A DNA stretch of 64,000 nucleotides, taken from positions 56,668,001 through 56,732,000 of the forward strand of contig NC_043002.1 in NCBI RefSeq assembly GCF_006345805.1, given 5' to 3'. Every line of letters begins with the position of its first letter. The first letter of the stretch is position 1. Source of the stretch: Octopus sinensis. Taxonomy: Eukaryota. Both the position numbers and the translations under genes were made by a program. Of this stretch, positions 5,926 to 36,189 are shown in pieces. Below the pieces are notes generated by a model that ran no database searches, was not told the DNA's origin, and saw only the letters and a program-made list of their open reading frames with translations.

Positions 5926-6629
5926 ATTTTGATAGAAAATTTTTCCCTCTATAGTTTTAGTTTCATCCTGTGTATAAAAAGTCACACTCTAACTTTCTCA
6001 AAAAAGTATATAATAGTATGATTCCATGAGTATGTGTGGTTATGATATCCCTTGGTGATATCACCACACATAAATGACGATGCATTTAGAATGTCTAACC
6101 TGTTGAACCTGTAATTATGTTTGTTGTGTATAACGATGTATTGTATATCTTTTTTTTTTTTTATTGTCTTTTAGAAACAAATTAATATTACATATTTTCA
6201 TGCGTACATGGTATGAATAGAAGTACATGGGACATATGAAAGAGAAGCAGATGTTGATAACAGTTGGGGATCAAAAATGATTTCAACTTCCATCTGGTAC
6301 TCACTTTCAGTTCCCCTTCACATTACCCTCTGTATCAACACTTAATTTTAAAATATTAAAAAAAAAACTCTAATCTACTTCCTCCTTCACTACAGGCACA
6401 CATTAAGAATTATATAATTTCAATAATCAATTTAGATATCCTTGCAAAATACTTTTTTCTAAGATTATCTACATATCAAGAAACTAATATGTAAGTCTAG
6501 CTGACTATGTCACCAAGAAATTGGATAGGTAATTGGTTGTAAATTCTAAGTCTTTTCCCAACTTAGAGTAGTGATTCATTGACCTTGGGTTAAAAGGCAG
6601 ACAGATTTAGAGAGACAAAGCTAATCCTC

Positions 6630-6970
6630 ATTTAAAAGCCCATTTTCTATTCTGGCATAGGCTGGTTGTTTGACAGGATCTAGTGAGCTGCAGGGCTGCA
6701 CAGAGCTCTTATGTCAGGTTTGGCATGGTTTCTATGGCTGGATGCCCTTCCTAATGCCATCATAGGCTACATGGGGTTTTTTTTTTTTTTGTGTCACCAG
6801 CACTAGTGATGTTGCTCAGTAAATTTTCAAAGCAAGACTTCTTGACTAAGTGGTGTAGAAGGAGTATTGAGTTGGCTGGCTTTGTGCCTGGTGTTGAGAG
6901 GTTAAAGTTTGATAGAGGGACAAACACAGGTGTCTTGCTATAGAGGAAATACTTGGCTACCCTGCATTTT
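6630..6970 (-). mobile_element. RTE 3' UTR fragment
   Basis: tttggcatggtttctatggctggatgcccttcctaatgcc, the reverse complement of the shared tail. Confidence 0.6.
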
Positions 6971-7891
6971 ATAAGGGTGGATGGAAGCAGCTAAGTTCCA
7001 GAACAAACCTGTGAGGTACAAAAAGTTGAGAATGAGAGAATATACAAATGGGGGAGGAGGAAGAGTGACAAATAGTTGGAGATGGAGGTGACTAGAGAGG
7101 AAAATATAAAAGCTGATAGGTTCTCTCAACAGGGCACAGGTTAATGGAAATATTAGTTGATGCCTATGATAAAGAGGAAATAGATTTATGACAAAAGTCG
7201 TCTTGGGTGCTCTAAAAGATAGTTTACTGTGAGCCGTAGATTAGATCTGTGAATGGAACACGGTTCCAGCCCAATGGAAAATGACATAGTGGTGGAATAG
7301 CCAAGTAGATGGAGCAATAATGACTAAAAGACAGTAAGAAAAAGTTGGAGAAGGAATGAAACAAGGAACAATATTTGGTAAGTAAGAAAAAAGGTCTGAT
7401 GTCAGGTATTCTTAGTAAGAGAGGGAAAGAAAGAGGAAAGTAAGGGTTTTGTCAAGGTTTACAATATGCGAGTCAGAAGCATGAAGTATTTTGGATTTCA
7501 AAGAAGTATATCAGTCTAGATCAAGATGCCCTTAGTATTAGGTAACTACAGAATGATAGCAGTGCATTTGCCCTCATGAATGCTGAGAAGAAAAAGTATA
7601 GAATGTTGTTATAAGGAGAAGGTGTGGCAGAGAATTTAACCAACTGAGGGGACAGCTATATGATTAAAAACACTATTAATGCTATCAGCAGAGAGAGCAG
7701 CTGGGTCTTCATGGATAATTGCTGAAGATATCTGGTAAAGTAAGACATACAGTAGTCATTCACATAGTGAATCAGACAATACAGGGCTAGTTTTGCAGTA
7801 TTACAGTCATCATCATTGTTAACTGCTACTAGGGTAAAGATGATCTTCTTGGAAGAGGCAACTACAGAAGTGTCAAATTGATGGACTAGAT

Positions 7892-8187
7892 CATAGGTTC
7901 TTAAAGTGGGTGCTACCACCCCCTGGTGGGTGCTGGTGCTTAAGGGGGTGGGGGCAGTAGAGAAAAAGGGGGCATTGGGAGGAAGGCAGTGGATTAGGGA
8001 TGATATGAATTTATTACAATATTGTATATAAATTATATAATATATTAAATATCAAATGATTCATGGTATATATAAATTAGTAAAATATAAAATATTTATT
8101 TATACAGGAGAATAGGGTGTGGGTGCTGAGGGTATTATGTGGTCAGGAGAGGGCGGGGTGGTGGCCCAAAAAGTTTGAGAACCTCTG
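7892..8187. mobile_element. hAT (Charlie-like) MITE
   Basis: TIRs cataggttcttaaagt and agtttgagaacctctg. Perfect 8-bp TSD gactagat at 7884-7891 and 8188-8195. Confidence 0.9.
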
Positions 8188-10393
8188 GACTAGATTATTA
8201 AAGTAACAAATTAGATTAGATGCAATTTGTGTTTATGCCTGATCAGATTGCCACCAATACCCTGTTCATAGTGAGATAACTACAGAAGTTCTTAGCTAAG
8301 AATAAGCCATTATACCTACCATTCATTACCCTGGAGAAGGCTTTTTCTTAATTGTTTTTTAGTCTGTTGGTTGCTAAGAAAACTGGATGTAGATTATATG
8401 TCATGTGGGAGCTGTGTAAGCCATAAGCAAAAATACAATCAGTAAGTCGAGGGAGTTCAATGAGAATTTATCATGTAGGTTGTTGTTCCTTTGGGCTCAG
8501 TCCTCAACCCCTCTGAGCCACATCAAAGGAATCTAAAGCTGACTGTTATGGGAATTTGTTTTTGTCAATGACCAAATTCTCACAATTAAATCTGTTGAAG
8601 AATTAGAAAAGAAACTTGGTTGTTGAAGCAAAACTTAGATTCAAATAATCTGAATAAGAGGAGAAATAATCTTAGGGAGGTGGATGTTAGAGAAATTGGT
8701 TGTAATGTGCACATCTAATGCACATAGTAGATCAGGGGATAAAGAATTACAATGTGATTCAAGTGGAAGGAGACAAGATGTGGTGAAAGCTGATGAAAGA
8801 GATGATAAGGGACTGCAAGAAATGGCGAGATGGGCCAGAGACCACCTGTTCCAAGCCATGTTAGCATGGAAAGCAGATGTTACTGAAGGAAATACTAAAC
8901 ACAGATGTGTAATGTAGAGAGTTGAGAAAACCGCTTTGTGTGATATGTAGGGAATTGCGAAGGTTTGTTCAACTGAGAATTATCCACTTGATCAGTTGTC
9001 AAAATATCTGGGTGAAGTAGGGATGGGATTAAAAAAATTTTTAAATAAAAACAGAAAAAAACACAAGGGAGATAACTCCTGTAAGAGTTTTTGATTGAAA
9101 TACTTTGGGCCGATTTAGACAATGCAAATTGGAGCAGCTTTTGTCTTTGTAACCATCTGATAAAGCACCCTATCTGTGAAGTGGTTGGCATTAGGAAAGG
9201 CATCCATCTACAGAAACTATGCCAAAGCAGACATTTGGCACGTGACACTGGACTTGTTGGCCCTTGTCTCAGACTGTCAAACCCATACCAGCATGGAAAG
9301 CAGATGTTAAATGATGATGATAGATGTGTGTTTACATTTGCAGTTCTCTGAAAGTCACTTGACTATGGGTGGTAATATTTCCCTCATTCCCTCTGTCAAC
9401 AAATATCTCTGCCGGCTTTATTCTTTGAAGATGTGTGGAAATATGATATCCCTGTAAAAGGGGGTGAATATAATGAATGGAGAACCAGTATTGAATGGAG
9501 GATAAGGAAGGTAAGGGGTGAAAAGCAACAGAGTAAAGTTGATTCAGTAGACAGGGGGACAGGGAAGGGGGAGAGAGAGATATAAAGAAAGATTTGGTTG
9601 GGTAGGTTGCTAGAGTGTGGTGGGGAACAGGTTTCTGCAAATAGATGGGATTCCATTTACCAACTTTCTCTCAGAATTCATTGGCATTTGTCAACCTGAG
9701 ATTCTTGGTAGAAGACACCTTTGCTCACTGTTTTCCTCAGAAACCAGATGGTTGTAAAACAAAGTTTTTAATCATGCTGCCATCCTGCAACCAGTTAAAA
9801 TATATATATATATATAAAATCTAGCATCAAAGTGAGCAGTCAGGTGTAAAATATCTGACTACCAAATCTCCTCTTATATGTGTGGAAAAAGAATTATTAT
9901 AAAAGAAAAGCAAGCAAAGAGGAGAGAAAGAAAATAAAAACAGATTAAATCAGCTTGGTTGAAGGTACTGGAGATTATCATTTGCTTCATGTATTTTTGC
10001 ATTATCCACCTTCTCCTATGCTAATAATATTATCAACAAATCAGAATAAATGTTCTAGTTTTCTCCTTGATGATTGAGACTTTATACAGTGAACTTGGGA
10101 GTTTTGTTTTCATTTTTTAAAGCTGTTTTTAGCCTTGTTAGAAGTTCAATGTCAACTTTTATTTACCACTAATATGACCCTCTCCACCGTGTTTCCTCTT
10201 ACTTCTCACCTGGTTTTCTAAGTTCTCTCTTAATCAGCTCACAGGAAGTAGACACTACACTGTCACAATGGGTGGGCACATGAGCTATGGTGGTTGTGGT
10301 GGTGGGGGTTTACTTAGATCTGACTTTTATTATCATCTCTTCTGTCATTTGATAGCGCACTTCCTTTACTCCTCCTCTTTCTCATCTCTCTCA

Positions 10394-23490: not shown

Positions 23491-25077
23491 AGTTCATATT
23501 TGTTTCATGGAAGGAAAATTAACCTTCTTGCATAAATTATTGTGAATGGGAATTTCATCTTAATTATTGTACAGTAATATTGCTCTTAGAATCTTATTAG
23601 ATCTACTCATGCATGGCAAACTGGACATTAAGTTGAAGGTGGTGGTAGCTGGGAGTGAATTGTCCCTATTCAGTTTCCCTGCCATCACCCCTTTATCATT
23701 TCTTCCCCCCCCCCCATCATGCTGTGTGTGTAAAACAAGGAATGGCATCAGATTTATCTGTATTCACTCCTCCACCAACACCCTTCCCCCCTTTCTCTTT
23801 CTTTCTCTACTCCTTCTCTTTGGTACTGATCTTTATAGCTGTCCATCACTTCTTCTCTTATTCATCACTCATCCTTATGACTATCCTACACTCTCACAGC
23901 CTGTCTCCTTCCTATCATTCTATGCCCCTCCCCCACTCAGTACCACTCCTGTTTTCTATCCAATCTCCTCAACAACAACCAAAATGTAGCTGCCTATTTC
24001 ACACTCTCCTCTTGCTTATCTCTCTCTCACACTCTGTCACTCATCTAGTTCACATTGCTTTAAATGAACAGAAACAGTGATAGCGAGAGAGGGGGGGGGA
24101 GAGAGAGAGTAAAGGCCTTGTGCTAATATGCTGATAAAATGTATTGAGTACATTCTGTAAAGTGTTTGGTGAGTGAAAGGAGACAACATAACTAGAGGAG
24201 ACTCTTTAGTCTTGCTGAGTACACAACCCCTTTTATGCTGGTGCCCTGATGAAGTACTCTCTGTAAAGTGTTTGATGTTTAAGGGTAGCACTCAATCCTG
24301 CAAAAAGTGGAACCAACAAACAATATTGGTCCAGACTTTGATATTGATCTTAGCCTAGGCCGAGGCCCAGGAAGGGAAGCAATTTCAAATAGGAACTAAC
24401 TTAGACTGTAATGGCCCATCCAGTTGATGCTAGCATGGAAGGTGGATGTAAAATGATGGTGATAATGATGTCTTGTTTGTAAATCTCTTCAGTTAATTTT
24501 CACTAAACCTTTGAGACCATGCTGGATTACTGCCATAGAGGTCAACATAAGACAAAAATGTCTTTACACAAAAATGTATAATTTTAGAAAGAAAGAAAAA
24601 TTACATCTTTTTTACTTTGATATTCAGCCAATTTACCAGGTAGAAATGGAAGTAATCATGATGATGATGGTGTTGGTGAAAGCAACAGTTTGAGATTTGA
24701 GTTTCAAAAGTACATAAGTCACACTGCAACCAATTTGAATTGAGTGCTTTTTAGCTGCAGTGTCTTCAACTGCTTTCATTTCAATCTATTGGATTGTGTA
24801 AAGTTTACCACTTTTAATACCAACCCACCTGAGCCCCCTCCCCCACTGGTTCTATGATACAAACTGCCTATTTTAAAGGGATCTAAATTAAAAACTTCCA
24901 TCAAAATGTCATGTTAATTCATGTTCCAATTAATAATAATAGAGTTATTATACTAAATTATTCATTATTTTCTAAATTAAAATGACAGTGCATTTCAAGG
25001 TTATGAAAAATTTAAATAAATGACCATTCCATTAGGTTTTGTTTGTTTTGTACCTTATTTACATTTCACGGATACGT

Positions 25078-25118
25078 AACGTTTCGGCTGATATACCATC
25101 CAGCTTTCATCAGGTGTC
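25078..25118 (-). ncRNA. Hammerhead core with the stem I 3' strand deleted
   Basis: Minus strand reads gacac CTGATGA a agctg-gatggtatat-cagcc GAAAC GTT, followed by a ~30-bp deletion relative to the other arms. Confidence 0.55.
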
Positions 25119-25410
25119 TTGGGGACATTTTAAACCTGGGTTCTCATTCCTAAGGTATTTTTCAATGTTGTTGATGTTGATGTTGTTCAGGTCACTGCTT
25201 GGAATCAAACTCACAATCTCAGGGTTAGTAGCCTGCACTCTTAACCACTATGCCATATGCCCATGAGCATATGGCATAGTGGTTAAGAGCGCATGCTACT
25301 AACCCCTAGATTTCGAGTTTGATTTCAGGCAGTGACTTGAATAATAATAATACTATTAGTAACATCGAAAATACCTTAGGAATGAGAACCCAGGTTCGAA
25401 ATTTCCCCAA

Positions 25411-25456
25411 GATACCTGATGAAGGCTGGAAGGTATATCAGCAGGAACGTTGTGTT
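25411..25456 (+). ncRNA. Minimal hammerhead ribozyme motif (GAAA changed to GGAA)
   Basis: gatac CTGATGA a ggctg-gaaggtatat-cagca ggaac gtt gtgtt. Confidence 0.55.
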
Positions 25457-26062
25457 AACAACAAACAAGATGAGGACAAATATCTGTCAAATGTAAATAA
25501 TGTAGAGTATTCCTCATCTCTTAAATATAGAACTGTATTGTTTGTTCTGGTTTTGTTGAAAGGTAGTTGTAGAAACATCTGAGCAACTTCAGAAACAATA
25601 ACATAAAAGTTACACAGAATATAAACAATATTTTATAGGAGGACTAAAGGTCTTTTCCTTTTGTACAGCTTCTTCACATATCAATTATCATGGTTTTCTT
25701 GAAAATTTTATTCATTTTGAAGGTCAACAAATTTTTTAAATACCTTTATTTTTCAATGATAATGTTTTTGTCCCCAACTTATCTGTTTTCTTTTTACTTC
25801 CTCCTCCCTTGAAAGTTTGTTTACACAAACACCAGGTAAATCATCAATTATCATTGACAATCATCATCACCAAGACAAGGTGAAACCTGGTGGGAGTTCC
25901 TAAATTTAAATCCCTTCTTGACTAAGCAACCAAGCTTACCTTCTCTCTATTGTTTTGCCATTTGTGCAGAATATACCTCATTGAAGAGGTGTAAATTATG
26001 ACTGAAACATATTCATTGGTTCTTACCTACTGCATTTTCTATATTTTCAAAAAAATTTCAGT

Positions 26063-33856: not shown

Positions 33857-34771
33857 CCCCACTTCCTGTGTATTTATTTTTACTTCATAAGAGTACAAGT
33901 TTAAAAATTAGGGATCCCTACTATTCTCCAAAGACAACAGCAGCAGATGGGTATTCCCCCCTCCCTGCTCCCTAGAGAGAGAACATTCCAGGTCCCTACC
34001 CGAATAGGCCTCCTCAAGTTAAACTGAGTTTTTTCACTCCTAACAGATTAACACCTTTGTACCATTCAGGTGACAACCATCCAACCCCATCCTGTTGTCC
34101 AGGCACCCCCCTCCATTGGTGGATGAGGGTTCCTGATGGATTTGACCCAGTCACTGCATACAACATTTTGTAGAAGGTATCTCACAGAGAATGGAGACTG
34201 ACTGGGACTCTGCTTGATGGGTCGCTCTGGGAGGACCTGGGACAATGGTGAATGCCCCCATGCCTGATCTGTTAATGTTTGGTAAAGATTTTCTGAAATT
34301 AGGTTTTTTTGACATTATTACATTTTAAGATTTCACATGATAAGTAATATTATTAGCTGCACTTGTTTAAAGGATGATATCAGTATTACATAGAAGCAGA
34401 GGCTAAATATTTCAACGGGTGGCATCAATTTGCTAAGTTGGATTAGTACAGATTAGTTAGACTAATGTTGAATGCATCGGGTTTCTATAATTTAATTAAT
34501 TCTTTCTTGTGCTTATACTTCTTCGAAATATGAGGAAGAATTTGAATGCAGTGTGTGTGTGTGTGTATTTATGTGTATAATTTTACATATAATGAGCGTG
34601 ATAAAACTATATCTGTATGTAACCAAAACTCAAAGCAACTTTTTGGGTCAATGATAAATTTAATATATTTTAATGTAACTGTTTTACAGTTACATATTTA
34701 AGAGATGAGGAATTATATACATTATTTAAATCATTTACATTTGATGGATATTTGTCCTCATCTTGTTTGTT

Positions 34772-34817
34772 AACACAACGTTTCGGCTGATATACCCTCC
34801 AGCTTCCATCAGGTGTC
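34772..34817 (-). ncRNA. Minimal hammerhead ribozyme motif
   Basis: Minus strand reads gacac ctgatgg a agctg-gagggtatat-cagcc GAAAC GTT gtgtt. CUGAUGA is changed to CUGAUGG. Confidence 0.6.
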
Positions 34818-35062
34818 TTGGGGGAAATTTCGAACCTGGGTTCTCATTCCTAAGGTATTTTCCGTTGTTGTTGTTGCTGCTGTTGTTGTTGTTCAGGGCA
34901 CTGCCATATGCCCGTGTGCATATAGTATAGTGGTTAAGAGCACAGGCTACTAACCCCAAGATTCCGAGTTTGATTCCAGGCAGTGACCTTAATAATAATA
35001 ATAATAATGATAATATCGAAAAATACCTTGGGAATGAGAACCCAGGTTCAAAATTTCCCCAA

Positions 35063-35108
35063 GACACCTGATGAAGGCTGGAGGGTATATCAGCCAAAAC
35101 ATTGTGTT
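35063..35108 (+). ncRNA. Minimal type I hammerhead ribozyme motif (core mutated by CpG-type changes)
   Basis: gacac CTGATGA a ggctg-gagggtatat-cagcc aaaac att gtgtt. Stem I gacac/gtgtt and stem II ggctg/cagcc are present; the consensus GAAACGTT reads AAAACATT here. Confidence 0.65.
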
Positions 35109-36189
35109 AACAACAAACAAGGTGAGGACCAATATCCGTCAAATGTAATTAATGTAACTGTTTTATTCTTCAATTTGTCTATCATCTTTGCTCAAAACAC
35201 ACAGCTGAGTTTTTCCAAATCATGTTCACTATGATCACCTCTTCCCCTATTTACTGTTACCATCTTTAAATGTAGGTTCTCATCATTGTCACTCCAACTC
35301 TCCAGTATTTCTCATGTTAAATTGAAGGATTACTCAATACATTTAGTTAAGTATAAACTATTCTTTTACAAGAAAAGTATTACTAGTGACTTCAAAGTTT
35401 TGGCCAGTTATCATCAAACTGTAGATAAAGAAAACTTCCAATTTTGATTTTTTTTTTTGGTCATATTTGGAATGTTCAGGAATATACGGCTTAATCTGTT
35501 ACTGCCAATTATATTTATGTTTACATAATTTATTTCTCTCTGTAACAATTAAAACTTAATATATAATGTAGATTATTCTATTGATCTCATGCTTCTCTCT
35601 GTTCTTTTTTTTTTTCTTTTGTTTACAAGTTGTGTTTTTATTCCCTAATTTACTTCTGCTTTGCTATTTCTGCTTACACCAAAATCTTTATTGCAAATAG
35701 CATCATTGTTACAGCAGTTTAAATAAACACTTTCTTAAAGATAACCATATTGACCAGAAGAGGGTTTAACAAGTTCTCATTGCTCTATAAATTTTGTCCA
35801 TAATAAAAACACCATCCCATATAAGGTCACATAGATTATATGTATAGGCTTATTTCATTGTTACTTTCCTTTCTAATCAAACAAAGCATGAAGGCAGAAA
35901 AAAAAGCCTCTCAAATTCACCATTCTTAATAAACATCTCAACAGCAAATTCACTGCATACCCTGGTTTAATCCATAAAGGTGGACAGTGGGGAAGGTATA
36001 ATACTAATTACATGAAGACATCATTACCACCTGCCTAATTTCATTAGTGCTACACCAAAATATGAGAGATTTTCCTGTCACACACTGTAGCTTACGACAG
36101 GTTTATCAAATCACCTTTATCAACCCCTCTGTAATGACAAGAGATGATTCATTATCATTTGTTTTGGATATATTTTATCATTCACTTAG

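Follow-up and report, generated by a model that had tools for sequence, protein, structure and literature searches.

The window, the whole 64,000-nt stretch of the 2.72-Gb Octopus sinensis genome that was analyzed, contains two asymmetric palindromes, copy 1 at 25039 to 25549 and copy 2 at 34670 to 35165. Both consist of two inverted arms of one repeat monomer, which was defined from 60 genomic loci and whose positions are given here with the prefix q. One arm of either copy ends near q248 and the other 33 nt further, at q281, the extra piece on the long arm comprising q249 to q281. The preliminary description of this DNA had estimated the difference at about 30 nt and had placed the long arm on the right in copy 1 and on the left in copy 2; the measured ends agree with both statements, and the change of side reflects the orientation of the insertion and nothing else. 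In copy 1, the short-ended arm (25051 to 25268, minus strand, q3 to q248, lacking about 27 nt internally) and the long-ended arm (25259 to 25537, plus strand, q3 to q281, with its tail at 25505 to 25537) share a 10-nt center at 25259 to 25268. They are enclosed by a 12-nt direct repeat (TSD) of low complexity and with one mismatch, TTGTTTGTT[T/C]TG, at 25039 to 25050 and 25538 to 25549 (plus strand).

The long-ended arm of copy 2 runs on the minus strand from q281 back to q3 (34685 to 34919) and the short-ended arm on the plus strand from 34910 to 35157, with a near-palindromic 10-nt center common to both (34910 to 34919, q3 to q12) that probably corresponds to the 5' end of the RNA. On the minus strand, the long arm comprises a 33-nt PLE tail (34685 to 34717, q249 to q281) found on this arm only, a minimal type I hammerhead motif (34772 to 34817) in which core A9 is changed to G, a degenerate (AAT/AAC)n spacer (34863 to 34892), and a head from which 55 nt (q20 to q74) are missing between two GGC(A) repeats. 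The short arm carries, on the plus strand, a tRNA-like head (34910 to 34989) with motifs at 34923 to 34933 and 34966 to 34977 that we take, from the box consensus, to be A-box-like and B-box-like, followed by an (AAT)n spacer (34990 to 35016) and the start of a Penelope ORF up to the short end at about q248 (35034 to 35157, with the ATG at 35034, equal to q126). This last part includes another minimal type I hammerhead motif (35063 to 35108) with core G12 changed to A, and both hammerheads are predicted to be inactive. The direct repeat of copy 2, TTAATGTAACTGTTTTA, is found on the plus strand at 34670 to 34686 and 35149 to 35165; its apparent length of 17 nt, 1 nt more than first noted, includes 2 nt that overlap the long end and, at the right, about 8 initial nt that also form the short end of the element. 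The earlier observation that each palindrome is flanked by a direct repeat of its own, partly overlapping the element end, was therefore correct. On folding, copy 2 forms one hairpin (z = -24 against 100 shuffles). Two bases of its long end, in the interval 34677 to 34696, deviate from the family majority and thereby allow a perfect hairpin of 10 bp to form with the TSD next to it, which looks like quasi-palindrome correction or templated repair. The window as a whole (1 to 64000) holds many scattered copies of other 150- to 350-nt repeat families (D7 to D19), microsatellites, and no ORF of more than 180 aa, and the segment from 6001 to 10000 has a GC skew of +0.25 across 4 kb without a notable ORF.

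The monomer consists, in order, of a 10-nt near-palindromic start (q3 to q12), the tRNA-like head to q84, (AAT)n, a hammerhead, and two alternative 3' ends. The hammerhead (q155 to q200) is of the minimal type I, with stems of 5, 6, and 1 bp, and its descriptor matches the family majority and more than 31 arms; the Rfam search found neither a hammerhead nor a tRNA in the element. The head is colinear with host tRNA genes (z of 3.4 to 6.7 for 27 distinct sequences from the six isotypes sampled), and the best alignments among these isotypes were with Arg(TCT) and Thr(AGT) genes. ARAGORN called no tRNA in the head or the window at default settings and was noisy, with much background, at lowered settings, and a search of phage DNA with the head gave weak matches only. 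Judged by its alignments and box-like motifs, the head can be classed as a putative tRNA-derived segment with A and B boxes. With regard to the 5' edge, in the sets assembled without selection on the head 33 of 106 arms begin at q1 to q14 and 2 pass beyond, and the numbers in the head-selected set are 16 of 38 and 10 of 38 (extending past q1), respectively; a full-length locus, L233, starts at q3. Other retroelements have often inserted into the (AAT)n spacer (L008, L012, L181, L183, and L192, around 1200 to 1500); they split many arms and thus make pairs look single.

Each palindrome arm is the pLTR, either its first ~250 or its first ~281 nt, of an ORF-encoding Penelope/Poseidon element. This partner was identified through a sequence upstream of the head that several loci have in common and that translates as the RT thumb and GIY-YIG C terminus of a Penelope-type ORF. 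The head directly follows the ORF end in 28 of the 30 loci fetched with that end, the others (L220 and L222) having no clear head start. L233 is a full-length copy, made up of an inverted short-ended copy, head, hammerhead, tail, an ORF of about 2.3 kb, and a second repeat extending to the long site, and L098, which was drawn blind, is a second, near-full copy. In these two loci, pLTRs flank the ORF and contain its start; the tail continues into the ORF, which begins at the ATG at q126, and the hammerhead, short site, and tail are therefore coding. A single ORF with a PLE RT and a C-terminal domain that we take, from its motif, to be GIY-YIG was read in translations of L038, L232, L233, L255, and L248, and the features of EN+ PLEs (an inverted 5' copy, a 30- to 40-nt tail at one end, and a TSD) are all present. 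The preliminary description had likened the palindromes to PLE insertions with inverted pLTRs, a tail on one repeat, and a TSD, and this comparison holds, with one TSD around both arms and the tail on one of them. Every Penelope-family copy that we read is broken by stops or frameshifts. The arm majority sequence is that of the repeats of the full-length elements, and no fixed non-CpG difference separates 58 ORF-linked from 146 short arms; distances to the majority at non-CpG sites were 5.2% for ORF-linked arms and 3.3% for short arms, the latter having been selected as best hits. Eighty protein relatives were found, the best at 65% identity; most carry RVT_1 along with two other Pfam marks that they have in common. 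The clade label, which should be read as provisional, rests on architecture and motifs and on the identity of about 30 to 35% between the Penelope ORF and Neptune-type ORFs of the same genome.

Several other assignments were tried and rejected. Neptune-type families, found through a GIY-YIG Pfam search, were considered as the partner, and their ends do not match the repeat. Non-LTR retrozymes are defined by head-to-tail tandem units with a hammerhead in each (bioRxiv 10.64898/2026.07.22.740005), and the present units occur as head-to-head pairs or singly. Nor is this a separate nonautonomous tRNA-SINE family with nothing but a 3' tail in common with its partner, because the entire unit including the head is the pLTR of that partner. 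Some Neptune-type PLEs (L155, L160, L161, and L162, also L152 to L154) have open RT and GIY-YIG frames of 775 to 883 aa with a second frame before them; these copies (L152 to L155 and L160 to L162) are about 99% alike at the C terminus and, thus, were probably recently active. Related Penelope ORFs on two metagenome contigs (L274 and L277) also have head-to-head inverted end repeats, and L277 has a hammerhead-like motif of its own. A 266-aa frame at 7471 to 8268 of L164 represents a further, different PLE-like family with a nuclease-like C-terminal end and no Pfam match.

A blind sample of 1.0 Mb (100 stretches) contained 11 loci of the family, classified by eye as five pairs, three single arms (one of them with a clear TSD), and three ORF-linked copies, which extrapolates, with a wide margin, to roughly 30,000 loci genome-wide. 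Pairs made up five of the eight short insertions in this sample and were the commonest form, not a universal one. When ends, centers, and TSDs were tabulated, as had been proposed at the outset, solitary arms were likewise not the majority (3/8 short insertions in the 1.0-Mb sample). The palindrome arises with the individual insertion and is the commonest but not a fixed unit; of the initial proposal that the whole palindrome is the unit of insertion, formation at each insertion stands, and the notion of a fixed unit does not, since single arms occur. The genomic pair sets consist of best hits and are therefore young. Arms of the family are 3 to 5% off the majority at non-CpG sites. No empty site for copy 1 was found in four runs (X9, X16, X18, and X5). 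Contigs of all four begin inside the tail and continue into the right flank, so that the copy 1 insertion is shared, including by an organism among these runs whose flanks differ by about 5%.

Before counting, we removed repeat retrievals of one place (L151, L172, and L176), ORF-set duplicates, and, from the random set, three spurious or edge matches, of which L105 and L132 are parts of other repeats. Of 59 head-to-head pairs, 14 were set aside with one end interrupted. Among the 45 with both ends resolved, 40 were long plus short, 4 were short plus short (two of these, L006 and L060, are long plus short by eye), and 1 was long plus long. Independent choice of ends was rejected both in the sets not selected on the tail (P = 0.0002) and in the tail-selected set (P = 0.0004), and a hand count of ORF-bearing pairs gave long plus short in all 21 that were resolved, one of which (L230) is complex; L205, L218, L258, and L261 could not be classified and are outside this count. 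The sole long-plus-long pair, L175, belongs to one of two cases in which the same insertion appears twice with its flanks (L175/L176 on G000:C2, about 0.73 Mb apart, and L202/L203 on C12, 21 kb apart), and these are segmental or assembly duplications. In three further loci (L010, L051, and L053), the inverted arm is only 11 to 13 nt long, just the long or short end, and lies inside the TSD where this is readable.

Direct repeats with a score of at least 10 flanked 29 of the 59 genomic pairs but only 1 of 129 mismatched flank pairs. A TSD was found in 30 of 39 anchored pairs; it measured 8 to 16 nt (12 to 14 nt in 23) and was 77% A+T. The more complete arm was the long one in 14 pairs, the short one in 12, and neither in 3 (29 pairs), with one arm reaching q30 or beyond in 27 of them. 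Junctions range from q3 to q231, on either arm; in 41 of the 59 pairs the arms come within 15 nt of each other, and 5 of these 41 have 9 to 10 nt in common at the center. Arms of one insertion were discordant at 9 of 52 subfamily sites in eight loci, compared with 40% ± 9% for random partners (P = 0.0014), a test in which half of the sites came from one locus (L218) and in which L233 was discordant at 2 of its 5 sites. Derived bases were shared between the arms of one insertion at twice the between-locus rate (P = 0.008). At site q164, the two arms disagreed in 8 of 38 pairs. Such discordance may reflect two RNAs or later mutation.

One TSD of about 12 to 14 nt around both arms, the long-plus-short pairing, the variable junctions, and the shared subfamily variants point to formation of the palindrome in one integration, in which two 3' ends prime on RNA of a single source, using the long and the short start site, respectively, and the arms are the resulting pLTRs. 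We give this reading a probability of about 0.82. The GIY-YIG nuclease would cut AT-rich DNA in a staggered fashion, with some 12 nt between the two resulting 3' ends, and both ends would prime reverse transcription, one at the long start site and the other 33 nt further in, probably with a protein dimer engaging the two sites. The cDNAs would converge as they grow and be joined almost or wholly without a gap, the first presumably reaching the RNA 5' end in most cases and joining the other wherever that has got to. Two complete cDNAs may anneal through the self-complementary 10-nt 5' end, which would yield the shared center of both window copies. The short copies would come from RNA with the tRNA-like head as its 5' end and would arise either by internal priming in the 5' pLTR of full-length RNA or from short transcripts of inserted heads. 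The scheme agrees with the biochemistry of PAc, which is described as cutting and extending both strands, with two RT start sites bounding the tail and a dimer model (PMC11167929). The same account reports no strand difference in start site in vitro, and strict long-plus-short pairing is therefore not given by the biochemistry alone.

Published PLE models favor self-priming (PMC3846280), and fold-back has been suggested there for palindromic PLE junctions: one cDNA would snap back and copy itself into a perfect palindrome, to be made asymmetric later by central deletions. The near-palindromic RNA 5' end, short fold-back head pieces (L055 and L233), the subfamily variants common to both arms, and the central deletion in copy 2 are all in keeping with such a course. 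However, a copy made by fold-back has to lie inside its template. In 12 of 29 pairs the arm with the short end is the more complete of the two, and in 15 of 21 ORF-bearing pairs it is the main arm and exceeds its tailed partner by hundreds of nucleotides. A TSD also flanks some short-ended arms that occur singly (L055, L059, and L144), and the short site therefore primes on its own. We regard fold-back as unlikely. The preliminary description had named the integration mechanism or a palindromic master as the source of the structure, and only the former is supported. A master transcribed and inserted whole could account for the nearly identical centers of the two window copies and for the 9 to 10 nt common to the centers of 5 of 41 close pairs, but junctions located anywhere from q3 to q231 on either arm refute it unless all of them are secondary deletions, and ORF-bearing copies of up to 2.3 kb show the same long-plus-short framing; we consider it highly improbable. 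Variable junctions and the fact that either arm can be the more complete one thus argue against a palindromic master and make simple fold-back insufficient.

Another possibility is that the short copies are a separate nonautonomous tRNA-SINE, one that took over a Penelope end and was propagated by masters of its own. Most short arms do start at the head, they are nearer the majority than ORF-linked arms (3.3% versus 5.2%, although best-hit selected), and every short copy, having the head and start sites, could be copied again. As an origin this is nonetheless quite unlikely, as the same head stands at both ends of ORF-bearing copies and no fixed diagnostic difference sets the short arms apart; it can be a second amplification route. 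The abundance of the family (11 loci in 1.0 Mb) might also allow two independent SINE insertions to land side by side. This was doubted from the start and now has a negligible probability, refuted by one TSD enclosing both arms, the close meeting of the arms (within 15 nt in 41/59 pairs), strict end pairing, and shared variants.

The tRNA-like head bears on transcription as well as on ancestry. The sense strand of 57 kb of copies contains 17 TTTT runs versus 107 expected; the corresponding numbers for a Neptune-type family were 85 and 40. Along the ~2.6-kb sense strand no TTTT is conserved (4 to 6 expected), and among 61 copies (depth, 2 to 58) no TTTT site common to copies was found, with 13 shared TTT sites. 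The ORF in five natural in-frame pieces (2,346 nt) has no TTTT, whereas two codon-based null models predict 4.2 and 5.6 (P = 0.007 and 0.001, respectively), a result that is suggestive, since it concerns one ancestral sequence and the test was chosen after the head had been seen. Five control PLE ORFs have 8 to 12 TTTT each. AATAAA is scarce too, with one conserved site. Eight related metagenome PLE contigs (38 to 49% identity) have no tRNA head in the flanks inspected, an absence that is weak as the contigs are short, and their TTTT content is normal (50 versus 35 expected).

Given the tRNA-like head and the avoidance of TTTT, RNA polymerase III (Pol III) may transcribe the element. We see an even chance that the head serves as an internal Pol III promoter for short transcripts, and that it does so for the full-length RNA is possible but rather doubtful. 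Taken as a whole, the idea of a coding Penelope element with a captured tRNA promoter and a full-length Pol III RNA of about 2.9 kb, purged of TTTT and shedding tens of thousands of SINE-like double-primed palindromes, is speculative; the shedding would occur because the RT start sites are also present in the 5' repeat. A TATA-like motif 28 nt upstream would suit Pol II as well, and the Pol III reading leaves the translation of an uncapped RNA without explanation. Penelope of D. virilis is described as having a TATA-less internal promoter like that of LINEs (PMC2377424), and autonomous elements have been argued to need Pol II (PMC10886601).

The palindrome anatomy as first described is known PLE anatomy; the inverted pLTR, one-sided tail, and TSD have been described for PLEs (PMC8557442, PMC3846280, and PMC8969392). 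What the octopus family adds is thousands of short insertions, which make the unexplained tail and inversion step of PLEs countable, and one long plus one short end with a ~12-nt TSD and a shared source, which point to double priming by a dimer. Should the tRNA head and TTTT avoidance be confirmed, they would mark a coding retrotransposon driven by Pol III, a case deemed unlikely in the TRIMp3 paper (PMC10886601), and would let SINE-like copies arise directly from an autonomous element. With roughly 5 pairs per Mb, the palindromes might also give rise to long hairpin RNA on a large scale, and these animals belong to a group noted for A-to-I editing. The open-access literature yielded no report of a coding PLE whose RNA carries a tRNA-derived head at its 5' end or of a Pol III PLE, and none of a PLE without conserved TTTT on the sense strand; Repbase, Dfam, the 1994 octopus SINE paper, and supplements, which lay outside the scope of that search, could hold the family. 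The main text of an O. vulgaris repeat paper (PMC13282606) makes no mention of palindromes.

In L1 twin priming, a second nick primes a second cDNA and gives a head-to-head inversion inside one TSD. The two pieces do not overlap in that case, whereas both Penelope arms represent one and the same stretch, copied from a pair of fixed start sites. Pen2a_Av of Adineta vaga and PLEs in general, as characterized in PMC3846280 and PMC8557442, have the same direct pLTRs around one ORF with RT and C-terminal GIY-YIG, the same inverted 5'-truncated copy at the 5' end and 30- to 40-nt tail at one end, the same TSD of about 8 to 16 nt, an ORF start within the pLTR, and a palindrome at the pLTR 5' end. In the octopus pLTR, by contrast, a tRNA-derived segment and (AAT)n come first; most octopus insertions are pLTR pairs that lack the ORF, and the long-plus-short rule and shared source are quantified. 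In PAc, the Poseidon element of Anolis carolinensis, the ORF start likewise houses the hammerhead and the two end sites, a pair of start sites defines the tail, and both target strands undergo cutting and extension, but its description in PMC11167929 presents neither a tRNA head nor a rule of one long and one short end per insertion. The minimal hammerheads of PLE pLTRs (PMC4209133) share with the octopus motif a short stem I, a long stem II with an unpaired 5' base, and a 1-bp stem III with a palindromic loop, and in Schistosoma, opposite-strand hammerhead pairs are reported 100 to 700 bp apart (PMC4209133); in contrast to such motifs, both of those in copy 2 have lost one core base. Among other retroelements, TRIMp3 Helenus, Ajax, and Cassandra (PMC10886601) also have a Pol III-type promoter derived from a small RNA inside the terminal repeat, but they are noncoding and of the LTR type, with autonomous partners argued to use Pol II (PMC10886601), while the octopus head sits in a coding PLE. 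The octopus tRNA-SINEs OK, OR1, and OR2 (Ohshima and Okada 1994) have the same kind of tRNA-derived head in the same type of genome; OR2 is listed as a CORE-SINE, whereas the body of the Penelope unit is the start of a PLE ORF.
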